Source: Nitrospirota bacterium
GTDB taxonomy: Bacteria; Nitrospirota; UBA9217
Assembly: GCA_963790205.1 (NCBI GenBank)
Contig: CAWBNQ010000005.1
Location: forward strand, 149,056 to 213,055
Reading direction: 5' to 3'
Length of the DNA stretch: 64,000 nt
Shown: positions 5,755-24,304 of the stretch, one piece after another
How positions within the stretch are numbered: the first letter of the stretch is position 1
Layout of the letters: each line of letters starts with the position of its first letter
Notes under the pieces: generated by a model
Databases searched by the model: none
What the model saw: only the letters and a program-made list of their open reading frames with translations
What the model was told of the DNA's origin: nothing
Program-made: the position numbers and the translations under genes

Positions 5755-5796
5755 AAGTATGTCCTCCGGACAAGTTATTTGTTCACGAGCTCCGCA

Positions 5797-6921: not shown

Positions 6922-7708
6922 AAAAATTCGTTTCGAGCTTTTCCTTTGCCGGGAACTCCAAAAACTCGTTCTTATATGCCCGTTGTTTTTCGAACATGAA
7001 AAATATTCCCCATGCCATGTTCGGAAACAGTCTGGCCAGCGGTCTGGCAACGACCGGAGGAAAGGGATAAAAATTGCTGCCGCCGAATTCCTTGAGCTTA
7101 TACCCTCCGGGAAAACAGCTTTCCAGAAAATTTACGAGGTCCCTCTTCGTATATCCGCGGATGTGAGCTGAATTGTTTTTCAGCGGACTGGGCTGCCTGC
7201 CGAAGGCCAGTAATATCCTGTTGTGGAGTGAGGCCAGATTGGGGACGCCGAGGATCACTTTCCCGCCGAGCGGCAATACTCTCGAAATTTCATGGAAGAT
7301 CCAGAAGAGCTCCTTGACATGCTCGAGGATCTGGTTGGCAATGACGACATCGACGGACCCGTCCTGAAAAGGAAGCCGGTCTTTTTCTATATTCAGGCTG
7401 TGCACGCGGATCCCCTTTTCAGCCAGTTTTGCCGCATAGGCCGGATATACTTCAACGGCATGCACATCGGCCCCGCTATTGATGCTCAGGGCCAGCATGA
7501 GGTCGTCGCCCTGCCCGGCCCCCATATCTATTACCGTCCCATAGTGACCGGCGGACAACAAGAATCGCCTGATCTGATGTCTCCCGTAGTTGAGCGACCG
7601 GTCGATTACGGTCCATTTTTTTTCCTCCGCCCCTCCGGCTTCCGTCCCGGTCAGCGGCAAAGCTCCTTTTTCTTTTCCAGCAACGAGCATAAGAGGACGT
7701 CCCTTCAA
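6908..7708 (-). CDS. Class I SAM-dependent methyltransferase
   Basis: Methyltransf_11-like motifs (VIDMGAGQG, DVVIANQILEHV, LPLGGKVIL). Confidence 0.8.
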   Translation of the reverse strand: MKGRPLMLVAGKEKGALPLTGTEAGGAEEKKWTVIDRSLNYGRHQIRRFLLSAGHYGTVIDMGAGQGDDLMLALSINSGADVHAVEVYPAYAAKLAEKGIRVHSLNIEKDRLPFQDGSVDVVIANQILEHVKELFWIFHEISRVLPLGGKVILGVPNLASLHNRILLAFGRQPSPLKNNSAHIRGYTKRDLVNFLESCFPGGYKLKEFGGSNFYPFPPVVARPLARLFPNMAWGIFFMFEKQRAYKNEFLEFPAKEKLETNFYVGN

Positions 7709-7791
7709 TCTCTAACGGGGTAAAGGCCGGACCATTATATCTCTCGCGGACCCCGGGTTCAACATAAAAAGTTCGGTCCGGAACGTATTTC

Positions 7792-8796: not shown

Positions 8797-8866
8797 GCAT
8801 CACTCTTCAATTGTAAAAAAGGTTGTTTCAGAACGTCTTGAACGCCATCACAAAATAACCGCAATC

Positions 8867-9718
8867 CTAGCGATATTTGAGCGACCTCGCCTGGTTCCTT
8901 ATTCTCGAGGGCAATATTTTTTTTACCGCTATTTTCAGATACGTAAAAAAAATCATCCACCGGTAATAGATGTTTACTTTCAGCGTGTTGTGGTACTGTA
9001 CAACAGCGCGCCGCGTTTCTTTCCATGCGAGAACGATGTTCGTATCTGATAATCCCCCGGCGGAGACCGAAGATACGACGAGATCGATATTGCTGAACTT
9101 GAATTTATTCTGATAACACGAAAAGATAAAGGCGAAATCCGCGCCGACTTTATAATCAAGGCTGAAAGGGAGTTTCTTGCAAACCGATGCCCTGGTAAAA
9201 AGGCTCTGATGCCTGAAGATCATCCCCTTCCACAAGTCCGCAGTTGTTTTTGCTTTCCATATGAGGGAAAAATCAGGACCATATTCCATCTGACAGTGGC
9301 CGTATATCAGATCCGCCGTACCGCAGTCGCTGCTCATTACCCGCTGTACGGTATCCATTTGATAAAATCGATCGCCGGCATTCATGAAATTGATCCAATC
9401 TCCGCTCGATAAAGAGATGCCTTTGTTCATTGCATCATAAATGCCTTTATCGGGTTCACTCAGCCAGTACGCGATCTTATCGTCAAATCTTTTTATGATG
9501 TCGAGCGTGCCATCCGTCGAACCGCCGTCGATGACGATATATTCGATGTTGTCATAGGTCTGCCCAAGCACGCTCAGGATGGTATGTTCCAGATGCTGGA
9601 CCCCGTTATACACAACCGTAATAACCGTGACCAGGGGCCTCCCGGGTTTCGATTTTTTGTAAAACCCGCCGCGGGTACGGAGCCCGCCGTCAATACGGTT
9701 CATATGTTTTAAGACCAT
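8867..9718 (-). CDS. Glycosyltransferase family 2
   Basis: VITVVYNGVQHLEHTILSVLGQTY followed by an IVIDGGSTDGT motif typical of GT2. Confidence 0.85.
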   Translation of the reverse strand: MVLKHMNRIDGGLRTRGGFYKKSKPGRPLVTVITVVYNGVQHLEHTILSVLGQTYDNIEYIVIDGGSTDGTLDIIKRFDDKIAYWLSEPDKGIYDAMNKGISLSSGDWINFMNAGDRFYQMDTVQRVMSSDCGTADLIYGHCQMEYGPDFSLIWKAKTTADLWKGMIFRHQSLFTRASVCKKLPFSLDYKVGADFAFIFSCYQNKFKFSNIDLVVSSVSAGGLSDTNIVLAWKETRRAVVQYHNTLKVNIYYRWMIFFTYLKIAVKKILPSRIRNQARSLKYR

Positions 9719-9886
9719 GATTGATTACCGACCTCTGTTTTCCGGTTATCTTCTTTTCCAGGCGCTCTGCATCCCCGTCAGGTCAGATCTGACGAAAAGA
9801 ATTTTAGTATTTCAACACCAAACGCTCACATTATTTGCCGCGCTTTTCCAGGAAAAAACTGATTATAAAAACATAGATGCCAGCAG

Positions 9887-11059
9887 CTAAGCAAGTATCT
9901 GTTCGATGATATTTCTTAGGCGACTATTGAATTGCTTCTGACCCCATGAGTCGGTCAGTTGTTTTCCTTTTTTAATGAGATCTGCACACATGACATCATC
10001 GGTCCACAACAGCTTAAGGCAGTGTGCGATTTCGTCAATTGACTCAGGGTTGAACAGTAAAGCCGCATCGCCCACTTGTTCGGGAATGCCATAAATACCC
10101 GAGATTGCAACAGGACAGCCGGTGACAAAAGCCTCCAGCGGAGGGATGTTCGTCGGGCCAAAAAACGTGGGCATGACGAGTGCACGAGCGCGTCGATATA
10201 GCTCCGGCATATCCTGATCCGGTACGTATCCCAAGATCAGAACATCATCGACAAGATTCAAGTTATGAATATGTTTTACTGTTGTCTGGTAACCGTTTTT
10301 TGTCGATCCCGCCAGGACTAATTTCAAATCCGGGAGTTCCTGTTTCAAGCGCCCAACAGCGCTGATCAATCTTTTATGGTTCTTATGCTCCCAAAATTGA
10401 GCGGGATAAAAGATGAACTTCTCGGGGAGCTTATACCGTGAATCGAAATCCACGGGCTTTTGTGACGAATAGATATATTGGGGCGCGATATAGGGCAGAA
10501 TGTAAACGCGTTTATCTGATAGTCCATAACTTTCCATCACATGGTGCTTCCCGACCTCAGAGTCGACAAGTACACCGCGGGCCCAATAACAAATGTTGCG
10601 ACTGCTCCATTCCCTCCTTCGATACATGCCATGCGCGGAGACCTCCGGAAATTTTGATTCGTAACGATGCATCAGGTCATGTATGGTCACCAGCGCAGGA
10701 ACGGGTATTTGAAAGCCGAAGTGGTCCTGGGTGGGAAATATCCATAGATCGCAACGTTCTTTCAGAAGTGTTTTAGCCAGAGGAAGGAAAGAGGGACATA
10801 TTTTCCTCCATACTATAATGGGAAGATCCAGTGCTCCCCATATTCTCCAAAGAACTCTTCCCCAGAAACCTTTATGAACGTAGAGGGTCTTGAAACTTTT
10901 CGCTTTGAGATGCTCTGGCCACAGTTTTGAAGTATATGCGACAACGACGGAGTACTCGTCGCTCCGCAGGGCATTCACGGCTTCAAGCATGGCCTGATTA
11001 TATTGGAACATCCCGCCGAACTGCGGTTCCGCTCCAAGGAAAAGACCGATCTTTTTCAC
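9887..11059 (-). CDS. Glycosyltransferase family 4
   Basis: GT4 C-terminal motifs (VLAGSTKNGY, LVMPTFFGPTNIPPLEAF, GCPVAISG). I place the start at GTG 11059, which gives a GTGA overlap with the upstream gene stop. The track start at 11119 would overlap that gene by 64 nt. Confidence 0.75.
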   Translation of the reverse strand: MKKIGLFLGAEPQFGGMFQYNQAMLEAVNALRSDEYSVVVAYTSKLWPEHLKAKSFKTLYVHKGFWGRVLWRIWGALDLPIIVWRKICPSFLPLAKTLLKERCDLWIFPTQDHFGFQIPVPALVTIHDLMHRYESKFPEVSAHGMYRRREWSSRNICYWARGVLVDSEVGKHHVMESYGLSDKRVYILPYIAPQYIYSSQKPVDFDSRYKLPEKFIFYPAQFWEHKNHKRLISAVGRLKQELPDLKLVLAGSTKNGYQTTVKHIHNLNLVDDVLILGYVPDQDMPELYRRARALVMPTFFGPTNIPPLEAFVTGCPVAISGIYGIPEQVGDAALLFNPESIDEIAHCLKLLWTDDVMCADLIKKGKQLTDSWGQKQFNSRLRNIIEQILA

Positions 11060-11823
11060 GCTTGCACCACAAAACAAACACCCCAGGTGTCGACACCCGG
11101 TTCTTTTCCGGACATCCATTCAAAACTTGCGAGAAGTTTTAGCCGCAGCTGTGATAAAAAAAGTTCTATTTCCGGACTAAATAAATAACGCATGGAATGC
11201 ACTTCATGTAACTCTTCCACGATGTTATTCGCCTTATTTTTTATAAACACATGATAATGAACGTCGACAATATTTTTTGCAGCATGCATAACCGGCTCTG
11301 CGATGCGCGTGACCAGAATCTGTTCATCTTCAAGGCGCTTCACCCGGACAGCCGGTTTTTCCGATATGACCGCAGGTCCATACCAGCAATCGAAGATAAA
11401 GATGCCGCCCGGATTAAGGTGCGACTTTGCCGTGGCGAATGAAGCCAAAAGGTCTTCATTTGTCGTTTGATAGCTCATTACGTGAAATAATGATATTATC
11501 GCGTCGAATTTTTTATCAAGCCTTACCGTGCGGATATCACCATGTGAGAATGACAAATTCTCCGAAAGGTCACGGGAGCGATTCGAAAGCCGCGCTTTCG
11601 CCGTTTCAAGCATCTCAGTGCTCATGTCCACTCCGTGCAGAGTATAGCCCATCTCAGCCAGAATCGTTGCATGAACGCCCGTTCCGCACCCTAATTCCAG
11701 TATTGACTTCGCATTCGGGGTGTGCCGCCGGATCAACGTGTGTATATACTTTGCTTCGGCTCCATAATCCTTATCTTTATACAGCAGATCGTAATATCGG
11801 GCGTAGTTGTTAAAAACATTCAT
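11056..11823 (-). CDS. SAM-dependent methyltransferase resembling TylM1/DesVI-type amino-sugar N,N-dimethyltransferases
   Basis: The N-terminal YDLLYKDKDYGAEAKYIHTLIRRHTPNAKSILELGCGTGVH run parallels the TylM1 pattern (YDLVH..KDY..EA..L..RRH.P.A.SLLDVACGTG.H). It lies immediately downstream of a DegT aminotransferase and a cupin. Confidence 0.6.
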   Translation of the reverse strand: MNVFNNYARYYDLLYKDKDYGAEAKYIHTLIRRHTPNAKSILELGCGTGVHATILAEMGYTLHGVDMSTEMLETAKARLSNRSRDLSENLSFSHGDIRTVRLDKKFDAIISLFHVMSYQTTNEDLLASFATAKSHLNPGGIFIFDCWYGPAVISEKPAVRVKRLEDEQILVTRIAEPVMHAAKNIVDVHYHVFIKNKANNIVEELHEVHSMRYLFSPEIELFLSQLRLKLLASFEWMSGKEPGVDTWGVCFVVQA

Positions 11824-11903
11824 TATCAGATCTCCACAACGTCCGTATCTTATCCGATTTCATAAATAATGCCAAATGTATTCTATTGAGAGCGCGCACA
11901 TTT

Positions 11904-13022
11904 TTACGAAAGAATGGTTTTGAGAGCCGATGCAGATCGTTCTATCTGCTCATTCATCAAGGCCATTCCGCTGGGGATATAAAAACCTCGCCTGGCTAAG
12001 CGCTCTGCTATTGGATATGTTTCCTGTGCGAACAAGCCCATCTTATGAAACACCGGCTGTTCGTGCATAGGCCAGAAAAAAGGCCGGCTCCCGACCTTAA
12101 GCCCCGACAAGCGACGCATGGCTTCCTCCGCATCGAACGGCACGTCATCTTTAAGGATGAGTCCATAGACCCAGTAAATGTTCTCCGCATACTCTGTGCT
12201 TATCAAGGGAAGATCTAAACCCGGCACGTCCTTAAGCAGTTCAGTATACCGTTTCCCCATTGCGCGTTTGCGCGCGACAAATTCATCGAGACGCTCTGTT
12301 TGAGCAATGCCCAACGCGGCCTGCAGATTGGTCATGCGGAAGTTATAGCCGAGTTCCTCGTGAACAAATCTTTTTTTCGGTTGAAAGCACAGATTTCGCA
12401 GTGACCGGCATCGTTCCATCAGCCTGTCGTCGTTGGTCAGCACCATCCCGCCTTCACCGGTGGTGATATGTTTGTTGGGATAAAAGCTGAACGTGCTGAT
12501 ATCGCCAAAACTACCACAGGGCCTGCCTTTGTAGGTCTGGCCGTGCATTTGCGCTGCATCTTCAATAATGCCCAGTCCGAACTTGTGAGCAAGGGACAGG
12601 ACCGGGTCCATGTCGACAGGTAATCCGTAAATATGTACGACCATAATAGCTTTCGTACGGGATGTGATCTTGGCTTCGATCTGCGATACATCCATGTTCC
12701 ACGTTACGGGATCGCTGTCCACAAGGACCGGGATACAACCCCGCCGCACGATTGCCGCAGCGCAGGAGATGATGGTGAAGGCCGGCATGATGATCTCGTC
12801 GCCGGCTTGAAGTTCAAGAGCGGCGACAGCAACCTCGAGCGCCACCGTCCCATTGCATACCGCAATACCGTATTTGCGGCCTGCAATGGCAGCCATTCGT
12901 TCCTCGAACTTCTGAACGAACGGTCCTTCGGAGGATATCCAGCCGGTATCGATACATTCACTGAGATATTTCTTTTCGTTGCCGTTTATTAAAGGTTCAT
13001 TGACAGGAATAAAATTGTCCAT
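11904..13022 (-). CDS. DegT/DnrJ/EryC1/StrS-family PLP-dependent sugar aminotransferase
   Basis: Characteristic N-terminus (PVNEPLINGNEKKYLSECIDTGWISSEGPFV) and a conserved Lys region for PLP. Confidence 0.9.
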   Translation of the reverse strand: MDNFIPVNEPLINGNEKKYLSECIDTGWISSEGPFVQKFEERMAAIAGRKYGIAVCNGTVALEVAVAALELQAGDEIIMPAFTIISCAAAIVRRGCIPVLVDSDPVTWNMDVSQIEAKITSRTKAIMVVHIYGLPVDMDPVLSLAHKFGLGIIEDAAQMHGQTYKGRPCGSFGDISTFSFYPNKHITTGEGGMVLTNDDRLMERCRSLRNLCFQPKKRFVHEELGYNFRMTNLQAALGIAQTERLDEFVARKRAMGKRYTELLKDVPGLDLPLISTEYAENIYWVYGLILKDDVPFDAEEAMRRLSGLKVGSRPFFWPMHEQPVFHKMGLFAQETYPIAERLARRGFYIPSGMALMNEQIERSASALKTILS

Positions 13023-13024
13023 GG

Positions 13025-13456
13025 TCAGTCCTTAATGTTCGCCTTATCGTGCGCAATACCGGTAAATTTCGTCTTGTCCTGGTCCCCTGCGTAGGGGCCC
13101 TGTTTCACTTCGATCATTTCTATCTCTTCCAATACCTTGAACCCGTGCCCGCCTGTTGCAAGCAAGATCACATCTCCTGAATATAAGATCCTGCTCTCCA
13201 GATAGGTCTGGTGATCATCGTAAAAATCTATCTGTAATTTACCCCGTTTCAGGAACAATACCTCCTGGGTGAAGTGCACTTCCCGGTGCACTGGATTATG
13301 TACGTGCGGTTGTATCACTTTACCGGCCGGATGACGCATGTAGGCCAGTTGCTGTGAAAGGTCGTTCGGAGTGAAAAAGCTGACTCCGGGAGTGTTAAAG
13401 CCGGTCCGAATGATAATCGACAGAAGCGTATCCTTATGCATTATTTTTTCAATCAT
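13025..13456 (-). CDS. Cupin-fold protein, WbuC/sugar 3,4-ketoisomerase-like (uncertain)
   Basis: 143-aa single cupin barrel with HVHNPVHREVH metal-site-like residues. It sits between the aminotransferase and a glycosyltransferase. Confidence 0.45.
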   Translation of the reverse strand: MIEKIMHKDTLLSIIIRTGFNTPGVSFFTPNDLSQQLAYMRHPAGKVIQPHVHNPVHREVHFTQEVLFLKRGKLQIDFYDDHQTYLESRILYSGDVILLATGGHGFKVLEEIEMIEVKQGPYAGDQDKTKFTGIAHDKANIKD

Positions 13457-14388
13457 AGTGAGATATCCTTTAAGTAACCAAGTAACTTGTTTCCGAAACG
13501 TTTCACCAATCCAGGCCTTATTGATTTTAAGAATGATCTTACTTCACTTCGAGCGACCGGATCTTCTCGTACGGGAATCGTAGCGATATGCACTTTAACA
13601 TCAGAAAGCTTCGTAAAAAAAACATTCGTACTCCCACTATTGATTCCACTGGAATCATTGCCTATGTTTTGGACGAGCGATGTGCCGGGATACAGTGTCA
13701 GTTTTTCTCGTAGAAAAGCTGAGGCATACCATCTGACAGCCCAGGAATCATTCTTTTTGTCAATTTGATCTTGCAGCATTTTGGTATAGGGATATGCTCC
13801 GTCGAAGTCAAATTGATTTTGTGCGCCTCTCTTCAGTAGGTCGGTCAATAGTTTTCGACCGTCCGCTTCGAACAAATCCCAGCCCCTCTTCCACGTTGCC
13901 CACCCCCAGCAGTCGGCACCTTTCAAAAAAAAGGTTTCAGGAAGACGGGCCTGGACCGGGTATAGATAACCGTGAATGCTTATGACCTTATCTTCCTCCC
14001 TATAAAGTTCCAAAGCGTCATTCATATAATTCAAAAAAGACGGAGATGTCTTCAAATCATCTTCCAACACGATTATGCGTCCGAACCTGTTAACGATCTC
14101 CGTTACGCCCGCAATAATGGATTGGGCCAGGCCGAGGTTCTGGTTTCGTTCAGTTAGTACGATGTTTTTAAAGCCCGTTATCGTTTTTATATATTTCCTG
14201 ACGTCATCGACTGCATTGCAATCGGCACCAGATCTCGGACCATCTGAAAAAATAAAAAGATCACTGTCGGACGCCAATTCATTTTTCTGCAATGCTCCCA
14301 CGGTTTGGCGGGTATGCCAGGGTCTATTAAAAACGAATAAAGCTATGGGGGCCAGAGGAGTCGGCATAATCGATAATGAATTATTCAT
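13453..14388 (-). CDS. Putative GT-A-type glycosyltransferase (GT2-like, atypical)
   Basis: 311 aa with a VLEDDL DxD-like motif. Its position in the locus is the main support. I recognised no strong family signature. Confidence 0.4.
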   Translation of the reverse strand: MNNSLSIMPTPLAPIALFVFNRPWHTRQTVGALQKNELASDSDLFIFSDGPRSGADCNAVDDVRKYIKTITGFKNIVLTERNQNLGLAQSIIAGVTEIVNRFGRIIVLEDDLKTSPSFLNYMNDALELYREEDKVISIHGYLYPVQARLPETFFLKGADCWGWATWKRGWDLFEADGRKLLTDLLKRGAQNQFDFDGAYPYTKMLQDQIDKKNDSWAVRWYASAFLREKLTLYPGTSLVQNIGNDSSGINSGSTNVFFTKLSDVKVHIATIPVREDPVARSEVRSFLKSIRPGLVKRFGNKLLGYLKDISL

Positions 14389-14392
14389 TGCG

Positions 14393-15007
14393 TCACAGTT
14401 TTACTGCATCGACAATAAGGGATGTATAATTGATCTTTTCTTTTGTATTCCTCGCGTCGTTCCATCTCGACCGGAGGATCAAACCATCCTCGGCGCTCCA
14501 GGGTGTAGAATGAAATTCAGCCTGTTCATCCCAATATTCAAGTAATTTCACCTTGAAACCACATCTCTGCAGCAGATCGCCAAGTGTTTTATACGTATAT
14601 AAGACCTTGTGATCGCCCGACCCCGGTCCGCTGCCCATCGGTTTCACATAGTCAATATATTTTACATCGGGGAAATTTCCGTCAGGAACCGCTATTCTAA
14701 AATATCCTCCCGGCTTGAGGAATTTGAAACAGTTTTTAGCGGCTAAAAAACCATCAGCCACGGTCAAATGCTCCCATACATGTTCCGCGAGAAGGGCATC
14801 TATGGAAGCATCGTCAAAGTAGCGCGCCCAATCTTTTTCCTTGAGAACGTTCAAATGCCCGATGTCCGTCCGGACCCACCCGCGTTGGGATACGTCGGCA
14901 GCGCCGATGATCACTTTCAGGGGAGACCGAAGCGTCCCTCGTTTGATCTTTATACCTCTAATAAAATGTTTTGCTGATGTATATATCTTAAGGACGATAT
15001 TTTTCAT
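14393..15007 (-). CDS. Putative SAM-dependent methyltransferase (divergent)
   Basis: Methyltransf_11-like core (FLKPGGYFRIAVPDG). I chose the start at internal ATG 15007 (MKNIVLKIY). The track start at 15037 is TTG. Confidence 0.5.
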   Translation of the reverse strand: MKNIVLKIYTSAKHFIRGIKIKRGTLRSPLKVIIGAADVSQRGWVRTDIGHLNVLKEKDWARYFDDASIDALLAEHVWEHLTVADGFLAAKNCFKFLKPGGYFRIAVPDGNFPDVKYIDYVKPMGSGPGSGDHKVLYTYKTLGDLLQRCGFKVKLLEYWDEQAEFHSTPWSAEDGLILRSRWNDARNTKEKINYTSLIVDAVKL

Positions 15008-15066
15008 AGGCAAGCGCCGCGTTCCGTGGATAAGCAAAAATTTTAAAGCACGCCTCAGCCGTAAAG

Positions 15067-16242
15067 CTACCCTCTTCCCCGAATCATTTTGCCTTCCAGT
15101 AAATTTTCATAAACTTTTTTCAATTCTTCAGCGCATTTCACGGCCTCGTAATTTTGCTCTACATGTTTTCGTGCGTTCTCACAATAGGTGCGATAAACAG
15201 GCTCTTCCATGGTATAAAAAATTTCTATGGCGCGCGCTAATTCATCGACATCGTTTTCGTCGACCAGAATACCGGACACTCCGTTCATGACCTCCTCCGG
15301 GATATCGCAGTGAAACGTCGAAAGAACAGGCATGCCCGAAGCTTGGGCGTCGAGCAGGACAACAGGAGCTCCGCCCTCGCAGTCGCCATTCTCGCCATAT
15401 TTGCTCGGATGAATGAAAACCTGATGTTTGGTTAAAAAAGGATATAACTGGCTGAAATCGATCCCATCGATAAAATTCACCTGGCGTTCCAAATCGGCGT
15501 CGTTGACCATACGCTGCAGCGCACCTCTCATCCCCTCCGGGTCTTTCCCGACGAGGGTCAATGTCATGTTGGGACACCGCGGAAACGCTTTGATAAACGC
15601 CTTGATCGTGACATCATAACCTTTTTTTTCCGAAAAACTGGCAATTTGCACCAGCCTTAATTCGCACCGCTTTTTTTTACGCTTGAAATACGGGATGTCC
15701 GCCACCTGGACCCCCAGATGAACGACCTTTACCTTATCTGCCGGACATCCGATCTGTATCAACTTATTGCGGCCCGCCGTTCCTTCTGCAAGGAAAAGAG
15801 AGGCTTCCTTGAATAATCTTTGATACCGTTTTACCCAGACGGGCCTGCTGCTCGGCAGATATTCATAGTCGAAACCATAAAAGGAAACCACCAGAGGAAT
15901 TTTTTTCATGCGGGACAGCCATAAATATTGCCACCCGACAAAAGAAAAATGAGCGTGCAGGATATCAGCGTCCGGTATCCGAAAGATGATAAATCTCCGC
16001 CAAAGAGGATCGAGTGTTAAGCGTACCCGGTTAACGACTTTTTGCAACAGCCACGGACGATCGTTTCGCCAGCGTGAATAGGGAGCGAGGATAAAACGGG
16101 CATGCGGCAGGGGAAAGGCCCCGTCATTTTCAATGCGCTCCGAAACAATGACCAGCTCAACGGAAGAAAGATTTTTTAAGAGTCGATAGCACCAGTTTTG
16201 GGTCGTATGTAAATATGCGTAAAAAAGATGAATTACCCGCAT
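15067..16242 (-). CDS. Glycosyltransferase family 4
   Basis: GT4 C-terminal EX7E-type region (HPSKYGENGDCEGGAPVVLLDAQASGMPVLST). The start ATG at 16242 overlaps the upstream stop by 1 nt. Confidence 0.8.
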   Translation of the reverse strand: MRVIHLFYAYLHTTQNWCYRLLKNLSSVELVIVSERIENDGAFPLPHARFILAPYSRWRNDRPWLLQKVVNRVRLTLDPLWRRFIIFRIPDADILHAHFSFVGWQYLWLSRMKKIPLVVSFYGFDYEYLPSSRPVWVKRYQRLFKEASLFLAEGTAGRNKLIQIGCPADKVKVVHLGVQVADIPYFKRKKKRCELRLVQIASFSEKKGYDVTIKAFIKAFPRCPNMTLTLVGKDPEGMRGALQRMVNDADLERQVNFIDGIDFSQLYPFLTKHQVFIHPSKYGENGDCEGGAPVVLLDAQASGMPVLSTFHCDIPEEVMNGVSGILVDENDVDELARAIEIFYTMEEPVYRTYCENARKHVEQNYEAVKCAEELKKVYENLLEGKMIRGRG

Positions 16243-17687
16243 TACAGAGACCCTTTCACGATACGGATGAACGTTTGCTTCTGCCACCAATACATCACGG
16301 CAATATAGATCGTTACCCCGATCCCCGCGGATACCAGCAGCTGTATTGCGACAGCATACCGGGACAGTATGAAGACGCCGAGATAATGGAGCGTAATCCC
16401 CATAAAAAGGGAAGCGGCGAGCATGGGCAAAAAAGCGTTTATGTATTCAACCGTATGCAAGTTCACCAGCTTCCATCGTAACCAGAACCCGGCGGGAAAC
16501 AAGACGAGCGCCGTTGAGAGCAACAAACCGGCGGCAATGCCGAGCAACCCAAAGCGCGAGCCGAACCAGACGGCGGTCCCGTACAAAAAAATCCTGAACA
16601 CATTAAAAAAGAACCCTAAATCAGCGCGGCCTTTGGCGAGAAGGAGACTCCCGAGCGAATTACCAAGGCTGATGAAATATCCGAGTATGCAAAGGACCTG
16701 GAAGACGGAAACGGCCGGCGACCATTTCTCGCCTACCAGTACGATGATAAAAGGTTTCGCCAGCAAAATCATCCCCGTGTAGAGAGGGAAAAGAACAAAT
16801 GCAATAATGCGGATGGCGTCCAGGAACCCGCTGCGCAATCGCGCGTTGTCGTGCTGCACCCTGGCAAAAAGAGGAAATGCCACCCGGGTAATTATCGGAT
16901 TAAAAATATCAATCGGTTTCGTCATGAGCTGATACGCTATGTTGTAAAAGCCGAGCGACTGGGCGCCCAGCAGCCTTCCGATAAGCAGCTTATCGAGGTT
17001 GCCTCCCAGATAATTGATCGAACGCTCCCCCATCTGATAGAGACCGAAGCCGAGATACCCTTTGAGATCGCTTCGCTTAAAATGAAGAAGCGGCCGCCAT
17101 CGGCGAAATCCCCAGAAGCTGATCACCAGCGTTCTCACTACGGTATTCACCAGCTGTCCCAGGACCAGGGATACTACTCCGAAACCGGCATGGGCCAGAG
17201 AAACAGCGACGGCAAAGCCGGCGATCGACCCGAGGATCTCCGCAAGAGCGATTTCATTGAACAGCAGTTCCCGTTGGAGCAGTACTTGCGACTGCTGGCC
17301 GATCGGCATAATGAGAAACACAAGGGACGCGAGAAGAAGCAGCCGGTCGAGACGCGGCTCATGATAAAATGAGACAATGAAGGGCCTGACGGCCGCGATG
17401 AGAACAAAAATGGCCGCACCGGTCAAAATATTCAACCAGTAAAGAGATGACAGGCGCTCCCTGTCTTCACTTTGATAGTGAATGATCGCATTGCTTATGC
17501 CCATGTCGGCAAAGGCCTGGGCAAAGCCGATGACGACCATGATCATCGCCATCAAACCGAAATCGTCCGGCGCGAGCACCCTCCCGAGATAGGCAAGTTG
17601 AGCGATAGAAAGCGCAGTTGTCACGAAACTGGAGAGTGACGTCCATTTGATTGCGGAAAAAGCCTGTTTTCGTAAGTGCAATGCCAT
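16242..17687 (-). CDS. Wzx-like oligosaccharide flippase (MOP/polysaccharide biosynthesis protein family)
   Basis: 481 aa with about 12-14 TM helices and the N-terminal pattern of PST-family flippases. Confidence 0.8.
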   Translation of the reverse strand: MALHLRKQAFSAIKWTSLSSFVTTALSIAQLAYLGRVLAPDDFGLMAMIMVVIGFAQAFADMGISNAIIHYQSEDRERLSSLYWLNILTGAAIFVLIAAVRPFIVSFYHEPRLDRLLLLASLVFLIMPIGQQSQVLLQRELLFNEIALAEILGSIAGFAVAVSLAHAGFGVVSLVLGQLVNTVVRTLVISFWGFRRWRPLLHFKRSDLKGYLGFGLYQMGERSINYLGGNLDKLLIGRLLGAQSLGFYNIAYQLMTKPIDIFNPIITRVAFPLFARVQHDNARLRSGFLDAIRIIAFVLFPLYTGMILLAKPFIIVLVGEKWSPAVSVFQVLCILGYFISLGNSLGSLLLAKGRADLGFFFNVFRIFLYGTAVWFGSRFGLLGIAAGLLLSTALVLFPAGFWLRWKLVNLHTVEYINAFLPMLAASLFMGITLHYLGVFILSRYAVAIQLLVSAGIGVTIYIAVMYWWQKQTFIRIVKGSL

Positions 17688-17744: not shown

Positions 17745-18479
17745 TTATCCATTGTTTTGTTTTTTCCGGACGATGACGAGATAGAGCCATGTCCATTGAG
17801 TGCTGTTAGGATTGAACTTCATGTCTATCCTGTCCGCTATGGGGAAAACGATGTTATTGGCTACGATCAGTAATCGGGCCAAGATCGATAAGATACCGCC
17901 CATCACGGACTTTATATAGTAGCTCCATTCGCTGCCGAACGTGAGCCAAAAGCCGGAAAGCGGTACAATTTCGACTATTTCAAAACCCGCTTCTTTAAAA
18001 AGATGCTCCAGCCCATATTTCGTATACCGATAAAAATCCCGGGGCTCTTCATGGAGATGCCAGAAAAGGGGTACGGTGTACAGCGCATGTCCGTTCGGCT
18101 TTAAAACGCGGAATGATTCCTTCAAGGCAAGCAGCGGCTGTTCAAGGTGTTCCAAAACCGCCGTGCATAAAATGGAATCGAATGAATTGTCAGGCACAGG
18201 CATGTCATACGCCGTTCCTATGATGTCCACGGTGCTCAGATTATGCAGTGAATCCTTATGATCAAGGCCGACATATTCCTCCACGCAGTCGCCAAGCAAG
18301 AACTTTTTTTTCTTTTCGCCGCAACCGATATCCAGCAATCGTCCATTGAGATAACGGCCGGCATATTCTCGGATTTTCTGTCCGCCCTTTCGGATTACCA
18401 TGTAGGCAGGATTACTGATGGGATAATCTCGATAATAACGCGAGCTGTCAATCTGATTCATGCCGTTATTCGCCTTCAC
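17745..18479 (-). CDS. Class I SAM-dependent methyltransferase
   Basis: LLDIGCGEKK glycine-rich motif and a DSILCTAVLEHL/LKPNGHAL motif II/III. Confidence 0.8.
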   Translation of the reverse strand: MKANNGMNQIDSSRYYRDYPISNPAYMVIRKGGQKIREYAGRYLNGRLLDIGCGEKKKKFLLGDCVEEYVGLDHKDSLHNLSTVDIIGTAYDMPVPDNSFDSILCTAVLEHLEQPLLALKESFRVLKPNGHALYTVPLFWHLHEEPRDFYRYTKYGLEHLFKEAGFEIVEIVPLSGFWLTFGSEWSYYIKSVMGGILSILARLLIVANNIVFPIADRIDMKFNPNSTQWTWLYLVIVRKKQNNG

Positions 18480-19170
18480 CCGATTCGCACAGATAGGGTC
18501 TTTTAAAAATCGTAATCGCGGGGTCGCCCTTCGCTATGACGTTGTCCTCGACCCGGCCTCGTACTCTCACAACGCTGCCTGGCGCAACCCAGGAATCCTT
18601 CCCGATCGTTGCTCCGGGGAGGACGATGACATTCGACGCGATACCCGCTCCGTCCTTTAGCTCCACGAAACCCTGGACAATGCATTGTTCTTCCGGCAGC
18701 GCTCCCTGAGAATACTTGTAAATTCGATTTTTATCCTTCCCTTTGTAATGAAAGGACTCTGATAATACGATGGCTCCCGGACCTATGCCGCATTTTTCAC
18801 CGATCTTTACGCCGCCATATCCAAGGATGACCGCGCCGAAGGCGATCCTCGAATGATCGCCGAGGATCACCAGACCTTTTTCATGCGGAGCCGTCGGCGT
18901 AAGCTCTATCACGTCTCTTTTTTCTTCACCCCGGCTCCTGCCGGTATGAAGGATCACATTCTCTCTGATCATGACATTGTCACCGGCGATCACCGTGGAC
19001 GGGTCCGAGATGTGAACGTTAGTGCCGATCCACAGATCGTGGCCGCAGGAACGAAATCTTTTAGAGTAATAAGACCGCCTCAGAAGGGCGCCTGTTTCTC
19101 CCGGTAAATATAAGATAAATAACTGGCGGATATCCACAAGGACATGGAAAAGGAACCTGAGCAATTTCAT
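18466..19170 (-). CDS. Hexapeptide-repeat (left-handed beta-helix) acyltransferase
   Basis: Repeated [LIV]G-x-x-x-x-I hexapeptide units (IGTNVHI, AGDNVMI, LGDHSRI, IGEKCGI, IGKDSWV). It overlaps the ACP gene stop by 4 nt. Confidence 0.8.
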   Translation of the reverse strand: MKLLRFLFHVLVDIRQLFILYLPGETGALLRRSYYSKRFRSCGHDLWIGTNVHISDPSTVIAGDNVMIRENVILHTGRSRGEEKRDVIELTPTAPHEKGLVILGDHSRIAFGAVILGYGGVKIGEKCGIGPGAIVLSESFHYKGKDKNRIYKYSQGALPEEQCIVQGFVELKDGAGIASNVIVLPGATIGKDSWVAPGSVVRVRGRVEDNVIAKGDPAITIFKRPYLCESGEGE

Positions 19171-19406
19171 CGTGCACCGTTCTTTTCATTGATGTAATCG
19201 ACGATCTTGTCGATCGTTTCCAGTCTTGCAATATCCTCGTCGGGGATCTTGATCTTGAAATTTTCCTCGATTTCGAGCAGGATCCCCGACAAGTCCAAAG
19301 AGTCTATCCCGAGTTCTCGTAACGGTTTACCGTGATCACCTTCGTTTACTTCTGCGGAAGTGGTGACCGATTTAATGATTGTTACTATCTCAGCTCTTTG
19401 AACCAT
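19167..19406 (-). CDS. Acyl carrier protein
   Basis: 79 aa, acidic, with the LGIDSLD phosphopantetheine-attachment serine motif. Confidence 0.85.
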   Translation of the reverse strand: MVQRAEIVTIIKSVTTSAEVNEGDHGKPLRELGIDSLDLSGILLEIEENFKIKIPDEDIARLETIDKIVDYINEKNGAR

Positions 19407-20355
19407 CTGTTTCTCCTTTTGTTGAACGCTGCATCAGACATGATGCCCAGGACAATCCGACGCCGAATCCGCATAAAACCATATTCCGAAGATTGTCATT
19501 CCCCAGATTGTTTTCAAGGAGCATCGGAATTGAGGATGACACCGCATTTCCGTGCTGTGCAAGATTACTGGGCATCTTCCCGGGACCAACATTCATGCGT
19601 TTTTGCAAGGTATCAAGTATGTATTTGCTCCCCTGATGAAAAATAAAAAGATCTATCTGCTCGGGCTTGAGCTTTGCCGCATGCAGCAATTCCGAGACCT
19701 GGGGCGGCACACGGGTTGCGGAAAAGTTGAATACGGCCCGACCGTTCATGACAAGCCTGTTATTTTGTATCTGCAGTGCACTGCCTTCACTCCCGAGGGT
19801 CCCGAATAAAAATTTGGTTGGTAACCAGCCGGGAGAGGCCGCATCGTCTGTAGCCATGTAGGTAACTGTCGCAGCGTCCCCAAAAAGCAGGACGGTATTT
19901 TTGTCATCAGGATCGATAATCGATGAATAAGGATCGGCAGTAAAAAAGAGCCCCCGTTTCAAACCATTCAGCTCCATGAACGATTTCACGATCGAAAGTC
20001 CGTAAACATACCCGGAACAACCGAGGGAAATATCGAACGCCGCACATTTCTCCGACGCTTTAAGCTTGCCGTGCACGATCGCCGAAGTATGGGGGATGCC
20101 GCCCCCGTCAGGATTCTGGGTGCACACCACCAGGCAATCAACGTCATCGGCAGATATCCGTATTTTATCCTGGAGCGCCTGGAAAGCCTTGACGCACATA
20201 TCGGATACAGTTTCATCAGGCGCTTTTCGTGATACGCTCAGTACGCCTATTTTGTTGATGATGAAATCGTCATCGATTTCGAACCGTTCCTTCTTGTCGA
20301 AATTCGATTCGTGCCGTTCAGGAACGTAACTTGCTATATGTTTGATGCTGATCAT
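19390..20355 (-). CDS. 3-oxoacyl-ACP synthase III-like (FabH/KAS III family) condensing enzyme
   Basis: Active-site Cys in LGCSGYVYGL, a His/Asn region (FIFHQGSKYIL, QHGNAVSSSIP) and a length of 321 aa. Confidence 0.8.
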   Translation of the reverse strand: MISIKHIASYVPERHESNFDKKERFEIDDDFIINKIGVLSVSRKAPDETVSDMCVKAFQALQDKIRISADDVDCLVVCTQNPDGGGIPHTSAIVHGKLKASEKCAAFDISLGCSGYVYGLSIVKSFMELNGLKRGLFFTADPYSSIIDPDDKNTVLLFGDAATVTYMATDDAASPGWLPTKFLFGTLGSEGSALQIQNNRLVMNGRAVFNFSATRVPPQVSELLHAAKLKPEQIDLFIFHQGSKYILDTLQKRMNVGPGKMPSNLAQHGNAVSSSIPMLLENNLGNDNLRNMVLCGFGVGLSWASCLMQRSTKGETDGSKS

Positions 20356-20966
20356 TGCGCTAGTAGAGAAAAATAGATGTGACCGATCACATCTTCATCC
20401 GAGAGCAGACTGGACTTCGTGAGCCGGTTATTGAAGTTATGCTCAAGCCTGATACGCAGGCTGCAGGCATCCGGTGCCTGTAGCAATCGTTTCAGTTCCA
20501 ATCTGGTAAATAGCCACTTGGCCTTTGTCGGACACATTGCATAATGCATTTTCTTGGTCATCGCCACGGCGACTTCGACCGGCGAATACCCTGTATCTTC
20601 ATAAATGGCGATCTCGTTCCTGGCCTCATTCAGTGCGCTCTTGCCTTCGATGCGCTCTTCCGCATACTCATAACGGCAGGCAACGTTGCGGTCTGTTTCA
20701 CACATCCAGCCAGCTATCGTGCCCTGGCCCGTTGAAAACGTGAACTCGGCCCACGGGAGTTCCGGCTTCTCAATGCTTTCGCCGACCGCACCCAACAAGA
20801 TATCGCATTCATGTGTCACAAGCCGATGGATAACGATGCGCGTCGGCGCTTGTACAGGCAGGCCGGATAGTTTCGGCACCTGCTCACACAAGGCATTGTA
20901 AAGATCAGTACCATGCAGGTAGGTTCGTGAACCTTTAAAGCACATGGGAATGGGGACTCGTTGCAT
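20352..20966 (-). CDS. Hypothetical protein (204 aa) in the ACP/KAS III/aminotransferase operon
   Basis: ORF with a good coding pattern that is tightly coupled to its neighbours. I recognised no family. Confidence 0.5.
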   Translation of the reverse strand: MQRVPIPMCFKGSRTYLHGTDLYNALCEQVPKLSGLPVQAPTRIVIHRLVTHECDILLGAVGESIEKPELPWAEFTFSTGQGTIAGWMCETDRNVACRYEYAEERIEGKSALNEARNEIAIYEDTGYSPVEVAVAMTKKMHYAMCPTKAKWLFTRLELKRLLQAPDACSLRIRLEHNFNNRLTKSSLLSDEDVIGHIYFSLLAQ

Positions 20967-20970
20967 GTTT

Positions 20971-22131
20971 TCACCTTTTCCCGGACGTCAGGGCATGATG
21001 AACCGTGTCTATTACGTCTTCCACATCCTTCTCCGTCAGTTTCGCGGATATCGGCAGGCTTACCGTTCTCCTCCCGATGCCCATTGCGTGAGGATAGTCC
21101 TCAGGCTTCCATCCGAAGGTCTGTTGATAGTACGGGTGCTCGGGAATGCTCAGGTAGTGGACGCCGATGCCGATGTTTTCTTTGGTCATGGCATTTAAAA
21201 AAGCGTCACGGCTTATGTTGGTCTTTCGTTCATCGATCATGATCGTGTACAGGTGGTAGGCGTGCCGGGTGTTCGGTTCTGGACCGGCCGGCAGGCCGAT
21301 CGGCAGATCTGCAAAGGCTTCATTGTACTGTTTCCATACCTCCTGCCGCCGCTGCCAGTACTGGTCTATGCGCTTCAGTTGATGTATGCCGATGGCCGCC
21401 TGGATGTCCATCATGTTGTACTTGAACCCGCACTCAACAACCTGATAATGCTTGTAGCCTTCGTCGCTGAACCGTTTCCAGGCGTCCTTGCTCATGCCGT
21501 GCAGACCGAGTACCTTGATCCGTGCTATATCTTCTTCGCGTCGGGTGAGCACCATGCCACCCTCGCCGGTGACGATGTTTTTCGTGACATAGAACGAGAA
21601 GCAGCCAAAGTCGCCGAAGGTGCCAGCTTTCCCGCCCTTATATTCCGTTTCGATGGCATGGGCGCAGTCCTCGATGACCTTGAGATCATGGCGCTTTGCG
21701 ATGTCCATGATCGCGTCCATATCGCAGGGTCGGCCGGCAAAATGGACCGGCAAAATTGCACGGGTCTTCTTCGTGATCTTTTTCTCGATCTGGTGCGGAT
21801 CGATATTCATGGTGACCAGGTCGATGTCGGCAAGCACAGGTACGGCATCGGCATGAATCACGGCATTCACCGTGGCGCAGAAGGTCATGGGAGTGGTGAT
21901 TACTTCATCGCCCGGTTTGAGACCGGCCGCTAGAATGCTGAGATGGAGCGCAGCGGTACACGAGTTGAGGGCAGCGGCATATTTTGCCCCTTTGTAGGCC
22001 GCAAAATCGCGTTCGAACTGGGCGACTTTGGGGCCGGTGCCGAGCCATCCGCTTTTCATGCTGTCGATAACTTCGTCAATTTCTGCGTCTTCTATTTTGG
22101 GAGCACCAAATATCAGAAAAGGATCTCTCAT
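20971..22131 (-). CDS. DegT/ArnB/perosamine-synthetase-like PLP-dependent sugar aminotransferase
   Basis: Close sequence parallels to ArnB (ISRDAFLNAMTKENIGIGVHY against [21 protein letters not shown]). It is adjacent to gmd and fcl. Confidence 0.85.
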   Translation of the reverse strand: MRDPFLIFGAPKIEDAEIDEVIDSMKSGWLGTGPKVAQFERDFAAYKGAKYAAALNSCTAALHLSILAAGLKPGDEVITTPMTFCATVNAVIHADAVPVLADIDLVTMNIDPHQIEKKITKKTRAILPVHFAGRPCDMDAIMDIAKRHDLKVIEDCAHAIETEYKGGKAGTFGDFGCFSFYVTKNIVTGEGGMVLTRREEDIARIKVLGLHGMSKDAWKRFSDEGYKHYQVVECGFKYNMMDIQAAIGIHQLKRIDQYWQRRQEVWKQYNEAFADLPIGLPAGPEPNTRHAYHLYTIMIDERKTNISRDAFLNAMTKENIGIGVHYLSIPEHPYYQQTFGWKPEDYPHAMGIGRRTVSLPISAKLTEKDVEDVIDTVHHALTSGKR

Positions 22132-22181: not shown

Positions 22182-23153
22182 TCAATGCTGGTTTTTATAG
22201 GCGGCATATGTTGATATGATTCCCTCGTTCAAGCTGGTCGTCGGCTTCCAGCCAAGAGAAAGAATCTTTGATATATTAAGAAGTTTTTTCGGCGTCCCAT
22301 CCGGTTTGGTCCTGTCGTTGATAATTTCTCCGTCGAAACCCACGATCCCCTTTACCAGTTCGGCCAGGTCTTTTATCCTGATGTCCTGCCCCGTCCCTAT
22401 GTTGATGAATTCGCCGACGTCCCGGTAATCATACTTTTCCATCAGGAATACGCAAGCCTCCGCGAGGTCGTCAACGTACAGAAATTCACGATAGGATTCG
22501 CCGGTGCCCCAGAGCACAACAGGCTGAGCTGAACTCTCAGCCTTAACCCCGGCCTCGACCTGTTCCATCCTCAGCTTTGCTTCATGGAACTTCCTGATCA
22601 GCGCGGGAAGAACATGCGAGGTCTCAAGATCGAAATTGTCTTCGGGCCCGTAAAGGTTGGTCGGCATAACCGATATATAATTCGTCCCGTACTGTTCGTT
22701 GTAATATCTGCAAAGCTTGATCGCTGCGATCTTTGCGATCGCATAGGGCTCATTGGTCGGTTCGAGAAGACCGGACAACAAGTGTTCTTCCTTCATCGGC
22801 TGCGGCGCGAACTTCGGGTAGATGCACGATGAGCCGAGGTTCAGAAGTTTTTTAGCGCCGGTCTTGTACGCAGCATTGATCACATTGGCCGCGATCATGA
22901 GGTTGTCGTAAATGAATTGCGCTTTATACGTGTCGTTCGCGAGGATGCCTCCCACTTTGGCGGCCGCCAGGAATACATATTCCGGCTTTTCATGAGCGAA
23001 GAACGCTTCGACGTCAGCCTGGCGACGAAGGTCCAGTTCCTTGGAAGTTTTTACAACCAGGTTGCGGTAACCGTTTTCTTGAAGTTTCCTAACGAGGGAG
23101 GAGCCGACAAGACCGCGATGACCGGCAATGTAAATTTTGGAATCCTTGTTCAT
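22182..23153 (-). CDS. fcl: GDP-L-fucose synthase (GDP-4-keto-6-deoxymannose 3,5-epimerase/4-reductase)
   Basis: [15 protein letters not shown] Rossmann motif and a catalytic YAIAK (Y-x-x-x-K) motif. I place the start at ATG 23153, directly abutting the gmd stop. Confidence 0.9.
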
Positions 23154-24304
23154 ATTTGTTTGTTCTTGGTCCAATGGATGCCTTTATCATGGAGGATTTT
23201 TTTGCTTTCTCCGGGACATGCATGATTGATAATTTCCAGATCGGCATCCACCATGATCTTCACGAGTTCCTTGAACGTGATCTTCGGCACCCAGCCCAGC
23301 TTTTTCTTTGCATGGGAGGCGTCGGCGAGAAGAAAATCCACTTCCGTGGGACGGAAATACCGGGGGTCGATCTCGATGAGGACGGAACCTGGTTTTAAGG
23401 TTGAGGATGAGGGTAAGGATGAGGATAGGGAACGAACGATCCCCTTTTCCGCCGTGCCCTTCCCTTTCCACTCGAGCTCAACGCCGGCATAGCTGAAAGC
23501 GGACTCCACGAATTCCCGCACCGTGTGGCTTTCTCCGGTCCCGATCACAAAATCCTCGGGCTTATCCTGCTGGAGCATGAGCCACTGGCACTCCACATAT
23601 TCAGGCGCAAAGCCCCAGTCCCTCTTTGCGTCCAGGTTGCCGAGGTAGAGCTTCTCCTGTTTGCCGGCGAGGATGGCTGCCACGGCCCTCGTGATCTTTC
23701 TGGTCACGAAGGTTTCTCCGCGGCGGGGCGATTCGTGGTTGAAGAGTATCCCGTTGCAGGCGAAGAGATTATACCCTTCGCGGTAGTTGACGGTGATCCA
23801 GTAGGCGTATACCTTTGCCGCGGCGTAAGGGCTGCGGGGGTAGAAGACGGTATGTTCGTTTTGCGGCGGCTTTGCCGCCCCGAACATCTCGGATGACGAC
23901 GCCTGGTAGTATTTCGCCTTGGTACCGCTCAGGCGGATGCTTTCGAGGAGCCTTGTGGCGCCGAGACCGACGATGTCTCCCGTGTACTCGGGCATGTCGA
24001 AGCTCACGCGGACGTGGCTTTGGGCAGCGAGGTTGTAGACTTCATCGGGTTTGATATTATAGATGATGTGGGTAAGCTGCCCGCCGTCGGAAAGGTCCCC
24101 GTAGTGCAAAAAAAGTTTTGTGCCGCGAACATGGGGGTCCGTATAAACGTGGTCTATTCTTCCCGTATTGAAGGTGCTCGCGCGGCGTATGAGTCCGTGG
24201 ACTTCGTATCCCTTGGATAAAAGCAACTCGGCAAGATATGAGCCGTCTTGGCCGGTGATTCCCGTGATAAGAGCTCGTTTCAAGATATCCTCCCTGCGGC
24301 GCAA
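23150..24304 (-). CDS. gmd: GDP-mannose 4,6-dehydratase
   Basis: [33 protein letters not shown] and other regions are near-identical to Gmd family signatures. Confidence 0.92.

Follow-up and report, generated by a model that had tools for sequence, protein, structure and literature searches.

The subject of the present analysis is a tightly packed operon in a 64,000-nucleotide stretch of DNA from a Nitrospirota bacterium (contig CAWBNQ010000005.1, positions 149,056 to 213,055), the whole of which is termed the window. Between 16.2 and 24.3 kb of the window, the minus strand carries an unbroken gene string that runs in transcription order from gmd and fcl through a DegT-family aminotransferase of nucleoside diphosphate (NDP)-keto-sugars (AT1), a protein of 204 amino acids (aa) with a predicted double hot-dog fold, a FabH-like condensing enzyme (beta-ketoacyl-acyl carrier protein synthase III, KAS III), a dedicated acyl carrier protein (ACP), a left-handed beta-helix (LbH) acyltransferase termed LbHA and a methyltransferase to a Wzx-type flippase (Table 1). 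We present evidence that this operon is probably a self-contained cassette for the N-acylation of an amino sugar of the predicted O-antigen.

A sequence-only reading of the window had singled out the five genes from AT1 to LbHA; all five were present on the minus strand, each of its gene assignments was confirmed by profile searches in Pfam and NCBIfam, and the operon was found to extend further, into the methyltransferase and Wzx. The tight overlap that it had described was likewise seen on inspection of the DNA. ATGA stop/start overlaps occur at the hot-dog/KAS III and ACP/LbHA junctions, the ACP start codon lies within the 3' end of the KAS III gene and is preceded by an AAAGGAG site, and only 4 nucleotides separate AT1 from the hot-dog gene. 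The five genes are translationally coupled. The module had been placed directly upstream of gmd and fcl; the adjacency itself holds, and in transcription order the module lies downstream of them. A scan for promoters and terminators gave nothing clearly above shuffle expectation and nothing convincing between the operon genes. With manB/manC, glycosyltransferases, Wzx, a WaaL-type ligase and an initiating sugar transferase nearby, the surroundings are assigned, on gene content, to a lipopolysaccharide (LPS)/O-antigen region.

Table 1. Genes of the operon in the window, in order of transcription
Gene or product	Coordinates	Strand	Identification and remarks
gmd	23150-24304	-	TIGR01472, 559 bits; first gene of the operon
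fcl	22182-23174	-	NF047922, 464 bits, under the cutoff of 500; adjoins gmd
AT1, DegT/DnrJ/EryC1 NDP-keto-sugar aminotransferase, 386 aa	20971-22131	-	PF01041
Hot-dog protein (the unknown of the sequence-only reading), 204 aa	20352-20966	-	Double hot-dog fold predicted with AlphaFold2 (AF2) and Foldseek
KAS III (FabH-like condensing enzyme), 321 aa	19390-20355	-	PF08545 + PF08541
Dedicated ACP, 79 aa	19167-19406	-	PF00550
LbHA, hexapeptide-repeat left-handed beta-helix acyltransferase, 234 aa	18466-19170	-	PF00132
S-adenosylmethionine (SAM)-dependent methyltransferase	17745-18479	-	PF08241/PF13489; overlaps the LbHA stop codon
Wzx-type flippase	16242-17687	-	NF007773, 488 bits; end of the conserved block

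The 204-aa protein gave no match to Pfam, NCBIfam or the sequences of the Protein Data Bank (PDB), and 34 members of its family searched against Pfam at E up to 10 pointed to no consistent family. Its AF2 model is confident (predicted local distance difference test score, pLDDT, 93.9; predicted template-modelling score, pTM, 0.90) and contains two helix-in-sheet repeats. With this model Foldseek returned solely double hot-dog proteins (E about 2e-5, TM-score 0.45-0.53), the neighbours being the product-template (PT) domain of PksA, TesB-like thioesterases, dehydratases of trans-acyltransferase (trans-AT) polyketide synthases (PKS), FatA and itaconyl-coenzyme A (CoA) hydratase. Because the model is confident and the fold search returned double hot-dog proteins alone, the protein is modelled, with high confidence in the fold, as a compact double hot-dog protein whose family has not been described. 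An Sfp-type phosphopantetheinyl transferase, considered on account of size and the two-repeat pattern, was rejected on the same fold search.

A word-indexed search recovered only 59 relatives; a full hidden Markov model (HMM) scan gave 1680 cluster representatives at 50% clustering, 521 of them below 1e-30; almost all of the 150 matches listed are about 200 aa long and free-standing. The family alignment holds an N-terminal motif KGxRxYLHGTD and the further invariant residues Glu96, Trp144, Gly188 and Tyr191 (numbered from Met8). An Arg/Tyr/Asp cluster is kept at the start of the first central helix, where the thioester site of hot-dog enzymes usually lies. Gene callers start the protein at Met8; conservation of the N-terminal 'VP' residues favours the 204-aa start.

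Genome and metagenome collections were scanned with the pattern of the hot-dog family, which yielded about 100 loci, and the open reading frames (ORFs) in these loci were labelled by phmmer against the window proteins and pre-annotated neighbours. Positional counts refer only to loci with room for the neighbour concerned. KAS III directly follows the hot-dog gene in 64 of 65 loci, the single exception being locus L084; ACP follows KAS III in at least 49 of 58, and at least 31 of 41 loci have a neighbouring LbH gene, a count that the overlap filter makes an underestimate. Chance falls far short of explaining the arrangement, which recurs in about 100 unrelated contigs, and the search for synteny of the five-gene block that the sequence-only reading had proposed thus found it in other genomes, including nine further loci of the window type.

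The 97 non-redundant loci fall into 9 of the window type (class A), 31-36 with nonulosonic-acid genes (class B) and 21 with a DegT aminotransferase and an LpxD-like LbH (class C), while 31 are too short or unclassified. Class A includes metagenome-assembled genomes of Burkholderiales and Thiohalocapsa sp. ML1 and shows the order AT1, hot-dog, KAS III, ACP, LbHA, in several loci the methyltransferase, and Wzx. The methyltransferase, whose probable role from its sequence is O-methylation of the sugar or of the acyl group, occupies the equivalent position in L008, L009 and L012 at 53-60% identity and is absent from L024 and L025; Wzx follows the module in these five loci and in L014. In class B the trio of hot-dog protein, KAS III and ACP lies with an LbH gene within nonulosonic-acid clusters (NeuB, CMP-synthetase, PseB/PseC-like and PseG-like proteins). 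Class C is a compact operon of DegT, LbH, hot-dog, KAS III and ACP, and the one aminotransferase of this class that was profiled is DesI-like (467 bits), that is, of the dTDP-viosamine-synthase type. Because the LbH type and the amino-sugar neighbours vary with the context and the trio stays constant, the trio reads as an invariant unit, a predicted generator of acyl-ACP, with the LbH being exchanged along with the acceptor sugar. As a separate observation, L008, L009 and L012 encode an AsnB-like amidotransferase of 650 aa after Wzx and an extra ORF of 285 aa between the methyltransferase and Wzx, both of which the window lacks.

These contexts also bear on whether the trio might serve lipid or small-molecule synthesis and merely lie beside glycan genes. 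KAS III and ACP are indeed fatty-acid and polyketide parts, and PKS initiation modules hold a similar trio. Nonetheless, no lipid or polyketide setting was seen in any of the 66 classifiable loci, where the neighbours are instead a sugar aminotransferase gene or genes for nonulosonic acid; the trio is translationally coupled to AT1 and LbHA in the window, and in Metabacillus bambusae it sits between flagellin genes. A lipid role is therefore considered highly improbable, and the glycan role that the sequence-only reading had preferred is upheld. Where informative, the contexts of the block are those of O-antigen, nonulosonic-acid or flagellin glycosylation.

The cassette was found in Proteobacteria, Verrucomicrobia, Planctomycetes and Firmicutes, the cultured carriers being Metabacillus bambusae, Pontibrevibacter nitratireducens and Halopseudomonas oceani DSM 100277. 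In M. bambusae (L104; GCA_017497975.1, JAGDEL010000005.1, 6219-14472) the flagellar locus holds three flagellin genes, and a giant 994-aa glycosyltransferase of GT2-TPR-GT1 architecture, the hot-dog protein, KAS III, ACP and an LpxD-like LbH are encoded between flagellin genes, with a divergent dehydratase and an aminotransferase beside the cassette. From this gene content, the flagellin of this Firmicute is predicted to be glycosylated with an N-acylated aminodideoxyhexose. In P. nitratireducens (L105), the conjugative ALG8 plasmid NZ_CP049814.1 encodes at 7809-12086 an ACP, an LbH, the hot-dog protein (labelled hypothetical in RefSeq), KAS III, an FdtA/QdtA cupin and a DegT protein, near large GT2 genes and a sulfate adenylyltransferase/adenosine phosphosulfate (APS) kinase, which suggests that the plasmid specifies an N-acylated 3-amino sugar for a glycan that may be sulfated. 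Separately, the class C cassettes of L060 and L078 (about 4000-16000) are flanked by several ORFs that look P-loop sulfotransferase-like and by a protein of 633 aa that looks CysN/NodQ-like, in each case from the N-terminal sequence.

With regard to reductases, only 1-2 of 98 loci had a classical short-chain dehydrogenase/reductase (SDR) less than 6 kb away, and the window operon has none; L084, the exception in gene order, is also the sole locus with a clear SDR. An aldo-keto reductase gene occurs in nine nonulosonic-acid loci (L004, L035, L071, L074, L085 and L103 among them), always several genes away from the cassette and not beside it, and never in window-type loci. It could encode the missing reductase for the 3-oxoacyl group or be unrelated.

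Both halves of the thiolase fold were detected in KAS III (PF08545, E 2.5e-16; PF08541, E 6.6e-21), with 3gwa as the best PDB match (164 bits). The intact Cys-His-Asn triad that had been noted earlier is present as Cys113/His240/Asn270 and is invariant in 66 of 66 aligned orthologues. As KAS III scores below the equivalog cutoffs for housekeeping FabH (NF006829, 212 vs 249 bits; TIGR00747, 189 vs 292 bits), it is a specialised paralogue and not the FabH of fatty-acid synthesis. The free-standing ACP matches PF00550 (E 5.6e-11) and carries the LGIDSLD element that the sequence-only reading had pointed out, its phosphopantetheine serine being Ser36 in ELGIDS36LD. It falls below the AcpP equivalog cutoff (TIGR00517, 49.6 vs 70 bits), and the DSL serine motif is kept in 49 of 49 orthologues.

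LbHA matches PF00132 (E 5e-12) and was modelled by AF2 as a beta-helix (pLDDT 88). In Foldseek its ten best PDB matches are all AntD (TMt 0.78, E 6.5e-9), followed by maltose and galactoside O-acetyltransferases (TMt 0.6-0.7); identity to AntD is only 21%. By sequence it gives weak matches to generic acetyltransferases alone (WcaF/WbbJ/maltose-type), and it reaches 40 bits with the VioB/NeuD-type model TIGR03570, whose cutoff is 161. The family counts 125 matches, all at least 48% identical, many of them on contigs equal in size to those with KAS III matches, and in all class A loci the gene directly follows ACP. From the structural matches we infer that LbHA may be an N-acyltransferase for the amino sugar.

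Among N-acyltransferases that depend on acyl-ACP, LpxD is the archetype. With a score of 30 bits LbHA itself does not resemble LpxD, and it is 25% identical to the LbH of M. bambusae. The LbH proteins of classes B and C are LpxD-like, with 157-217 bits and LpxA/LpxD as top PDB matches; the M. bambusae copy scores above the LpxD subfamily cutoff even though this Gram-positive organism has no lipid A. Since the LbH of these other two contexts is LpxD-like, the cassette as a whole shows a predicted use of LbH N-acyltransferases of the acyl-ACP type. The acceptors in question are not lipid A precursors, which sets the cassette apart from LpxD/LpxA proper.

A different division of labour would make the hot-dog protein an AfsA-like transferase that moves a beta-ketoacyl group from ACP to the sugar, leaving the LbH as an ordinary acetyl-CoA-dependent O- or N-acetyltransferase. 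AfsA is a double hot-dog beta-ketoacyl-ACP transferase, and enzymes of its type do move such a group from ACP to an acceptor (PMC8209734). No reductase is linked in most loci, so the carrier must hold a beta-ketoacyl group; the weak matches of LbHA to WcaF/WbbJ/maltose O-acetyltransferases and the faster divergence of the hot-dog protein across class A (37-45% identity vs 56-64% for KAS III) would also fit. However, it is the LbH whose type varies with the acceptor pathway, whereas the hot-dog gene is fixed to KAS III and ACP, and the LbH partners are of LpxD-like or AntD-like, hence N-acyltransferase, types. A class C operon of five genes that serves a mono-amino sugar would moreover have one transferase more than it needs, and not one hot-dog family member matches Pfam AfsA even at E 10. 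Taken together, an AfsA-like role is regarded as unlikely, and transfer by the LbH is preferred.

By its parts list, the closest known system to the window cassette appears to be the viosamine island of Pseudomonas syringae pv. tabaci, which comprises vioA (aminotransferase), vioS (KAS III), acp, vioB (LbH), vioR (3-oxoacyl-ACP reductase), vioM (methyltransferase) and vioT (PMC3927599). Its product is dTDP-N-(3-hydroxybutanoyl)-2-O-methylviosamine, formed via an N-acetoacetyl intermediate along a route supported by mass spectrometry of mutants; deletion of vioR abolishes the modified sugar, and the island is homologous to part of the flagellar glycosylation island of P. aeruginosa PAK (PMC3927599). 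N-acylation of an amino sugar fed by KAS III and ACP is hence already known genetically. The two systems share a cluster of DegT aminotransferase, KAS III, dedicated ACP, LbH and methyltransferase for one modified amino sugar, and the proposed logic of an acetoacetyl group on the carrier, transfer to the 4-amino group and subsequent O-methylation. They differ in that the island has the essential VioR reductase and no hot-dog protein whereas the window has a hot-dog protein and no reductase, in that the island targets flagellin and the window, with its Wzx and ligase, the predicted O-antigen, and in that the window LbH is AntD-like and that of the island VioB/NeuD-type; the likeness is drawn from the set of parts.

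The product logic of the anthrose pathway of Bacillus cereus/anthracis is also comparable. In that pathway AntC (aminotransferase), AntD (N-acyltransferase) and AntA (hydratase) lead to an O-methylated 4-amino-4,6-dideoxyhexose that bears a short N-(3-hydroxyacyl) group. AntD, the N-(3-hydroxyacyl)transferase of anthrose in Bacillus cereus, has been crystallised with dTDP-4-amino-4,6-dideoxyglucose and 3-hydroxybutyryl-CoA, and such complexes are the best structural matches of LbHA. AntD nevertheless draws its acyl group from CoA by way of a crotonase-type hydratase, whereas that of the window would come from KAS III and ACP.

The sequence-only reading had likened the operon to the tetronate module rfbKLMNO of Vibrio cholerae O1, which holds an ACP, an acyl-AMP ligase/LuxE, a LuxC-type reductase and an alcohol dehydrogenase. 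Blocks of ACP, FabG, AMP-ligase, LuxE and LuxC occur in flagellin glycosylation islands of Aeromonas and enterobacteria (PMC7874193, PMC4875605). What these systems share with the window is a dedicated ACP inside a glycan cluster that builds a non-acetyl acyl substituent; in them, however, an acid is activated by AMP-ligase/LuxE and reduced by LuxC/FabG, with neither KAS III nor a hot-dog protein. No ligase or reductase domain was found in the window operon, and only ACP and LbH are common to it and the rfbKLMNO-type module. The comparison therefore stands as regards a dedicated ACP served by different enzymes and is otherwise a loose analogy, the viosamine island and anthrose being much closer. 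Literature on KAS III or ACP together with nonulosonic acid or O-antigen was searched, and nothing relevant was found.

The acceptor is probably supplied by AT1. AT1 matches PF01041 (E 6e-130, 434 bits), its lysine motif FSFYVTK184N aligns with the ArnB-type motif of the pyridoxal phosphate (PLP) lysine, and its orthologues, 67-78% identical, head the equivalent block in eight other loci. Against PDB sequences ArnB scores higher (280 bits) than perosamine synthase (232 bits), and the best NCBIfam models are PseC (360 bits) and ArnB (352 bits), both below cutoff, so that its closest characterised relative is ArnB and not perosamine synthase (Per/RfbE). A second DegT aminotransferase of the locus, AT2 (11904-13022), reaches 303 bits with perosamine synthase and 173 bits with ArnB and has LegC as best model. 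PseC and ArnB are UDP-sugar enzymes; Per and LegC are GDP-sugar enzymes.

It had been proposed that AT1 makes GDP-perosamine from the Gmd product, in which case the cassette would yield GDP-N-(acetoacetyl or 3-hydroxybutanoyl)-perosamine. A search of the 64-kb window for a further 4,6-dehydratase homologue found none, which leaves Gmd as the sole source of a 4-keto-sugar encoded there; the gene order gmd-fcl-AT1, the presence of manB and manC in the same cluster and the rank of perosamine synthase as second-best group of solved AT1 relatives point the same way. A gmd also neighbours the AT1 orthologue in L009; in L046, only a 118-aa ORF separates the AT1 orthologue from an upstream gmd of another lineage (TIGR01472, 313 bits, partial ORF). 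On the other hand, AT1 leans by score and by profile to UDP-sugar enzymes, AT2 is the clear Per/LegC-like enzyme of the locus, and no gmd was found within the 1-10 kb available around the AT1 orthologues of L012, L014 and L024. As Gmd is the sole 4-keto-sugar generator in the window and gmd adjoins the orthologues in L009 and L046, GDP is a possible nucleotide for the AT1 substrate even as the sequence leans to UDP-type enzymes; GDP-perosamine as the product is not established and is held to be doubtful.

Two observations stand beside these genes. AT2 belongs to a second amino-sugar gene set at 11056-13456 (minus strand), in which a 143-aa cupin (a weak WbuC-family match, none in Pfam) is accompanied by AT2 and then immediately by a SAM methyltransferase; the set may make a GDP-linked, possibly N-methylated amino sugar. 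Fcl has an insertion of about 20 residues and a score just below its NCBIfam equivalog cutoff (464 vs 500 bits). An epimerase-only variant of Fcl, leaving a 4-keto L-sugar for an ArnB/PseC-like aminotransferase, was considered and rejected, the GSSCIYP, YAIAK and SHV elements, which supply the catalytic Ser/Cys, Tyr/Lys and His, being intact.

The proposed pathway would begin with AT1 turning an NDP-4-keto-6-deoxyhexose into an NDP-4-amino-4,6-dideoxyhexose. Holo-ACP would bear a malonyl group, with which KAS III would condense a short acyl-CoA, in the simplest case acetyl-CoA, to 3-oxobutanoyl-ACP. The hot-dog protein, as part of the unit that makes acyl-ACP, would act on the carrier-bound thioester, and this is the weakest step. 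LbHA would then move the C4 acyl group from the phosphopantetheine arm onto the sugar amine, after which the methyltransferase may add a methyl group and a glycosyltransferase may incorporate the sugar. The idea of an N-acyl amino-sugar module put forward by the sequence-only reading gains from the genomic contexts, the AntD-like and LpxD-like LbH proteins and the viosamine precedent, its GDP-perosamine identity being doubtful.

Several points weigh against this pathway. AntD takes CoA thioesters and not ACP, and the N-terminus of LbHA as well as its sequence matches also resemble O-acetyltransferases of the WcaF/WbbJ/maltose type. AT1 resembles ArnB/PseC more than Per, and the locus holds a better Per candidate in AT2. 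The likeness of the hot-dog protein to characterised enzymes is weak (TM-score 0.45-0.53), and His11 and Gly12 are replaced in some members of its family. Lastly, an SDR is linked in so few loci, while in P. syringae loss of vioR abolishes the sugar; since VioR is essential there and a reductase is not linked here, a C4 3-hydroxyacyl product is not assured. As no ketoreductase is linked, the final group would be either N-3-oxobutanoyl or, through an unlinked reductase, N-3-hydroxybutanoyl.

The hot-dog protein could alternatively be a dehydratase of the FabZ/PKS-DH type, in which case a housekeeping FabG would reduce acetoacetyl-ACP, the hot-dog protein would dehydrate what FabG forms, and an enoyl (crotonyl-type) or further modified group would be transferred. 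Several PKS dehydratase domains and itaconyl-CoA hydratase are indeed among its Foldseek neighbours, and a conserved His/Asp pair sits where the first central helix starts. Yet the dehydratase motifs HxxxGxxxxP and DxxxQ/H are absent from both the sequence and the family alignment, and His11, the sole conserved His of the family, is Gln in family member P0008 and in the M. bambusae homologue, in which Gly12 is also Ser. With these motifs missing and the conserved His replaced, a classical His/Asp dehydratase mechanism is unlikely on the sequence. An unlinked reductase would furthermore be needed across about 100 loci, and to our knowledge N-crotonyl sugars have not been described. We accordingly see little chance for the dehydratase.

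Four putative functions were weighed for the hot-dog protein within the acyl-ACP-making unit. Loading or editing of ACP, as a malonyl transacylase or a proof-reading thioesterase analogous to LnmK or ZhuC/DpsD, is the leading candidate, held tentatively, because the protein is fixed to KAS III/ACP and not to the acceptor, lacks dehydratase motifs and keeps the Arg/Tyr/Asp cluster at the thioester site. Processing of the beta-carbon ranks second at a clear distance, off-loading is somewhat less probable again, and a non-catalytic partner is the least expected. In type II PKS initiation modules an acyltransferase/thioesterase (AT/TE) partner (ZhuC/DpsD) stands alongside KAS III and ACP. LnmK, an acyltransferase/decarboxylase with a double hot-dog fold, loads an ACP (PMC8666670). 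The window protein shares the double hot-dog fold with LnmK, AfsA, the dehydratase (DH) and PT domains of PKS and TesB, and LnmK and AfsA act on carrier-bound acyl thioesters beside a thiolase-fold condensing enzyme; unlike these proteins it is about 200 aa long vs 270-320, shows no detectable sequence relation to them and lacks the DH His/Asp motifs.

A bolder possibility, to which we give limited credence, is that the trio is a previously unrecognised reductase-free generator of acyl-ACP that is plugged into many amino-sugar and nonulosonic-acid pathways, with the hot-dog protein as a new enzyme class. It could then be a loader or editor that works from malonyl-CoA to ACP, or a converter of beta-ketoacyl-ACP to an uncatalogued glycan acyl group. 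If this is true, an N-3-oxoacyl group or some other novel substituent would be present on many surface glycans.

Serotype, recognition by phages and antibodies, and immune evasion are determined by the N-acyl groups that decorate O-antigens, capsules, nonulosonic acids and flagellin glycans, and the origin of non-acetyl N-acyl groups on surface glycans is known for only a few cases. What is new here is a variant that does without a reductase and centres on an uncharacterised double hot-dog family, together with its apparent portability across 4-amino, 3-amino and nonulosonic-acid pathways and its wide distribution as judged from gene content. The core protein is still annotated as 'hypothetical' and without a family model; its assignment would improve the prediction of glycan structures from genomes and provide portable enzymes for making N-acylated rare sugars. 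The cultured carriers make the cassette directly testable.

The glycan cluster is bordered at 173-2819 (minus strand) by the gene for an MBOAT-family membrane O-acyltransferase (1377-2819) and, after it, that for a 372-aa protein without a Pfam match; the two look like an AlgI/DltB-type pair.

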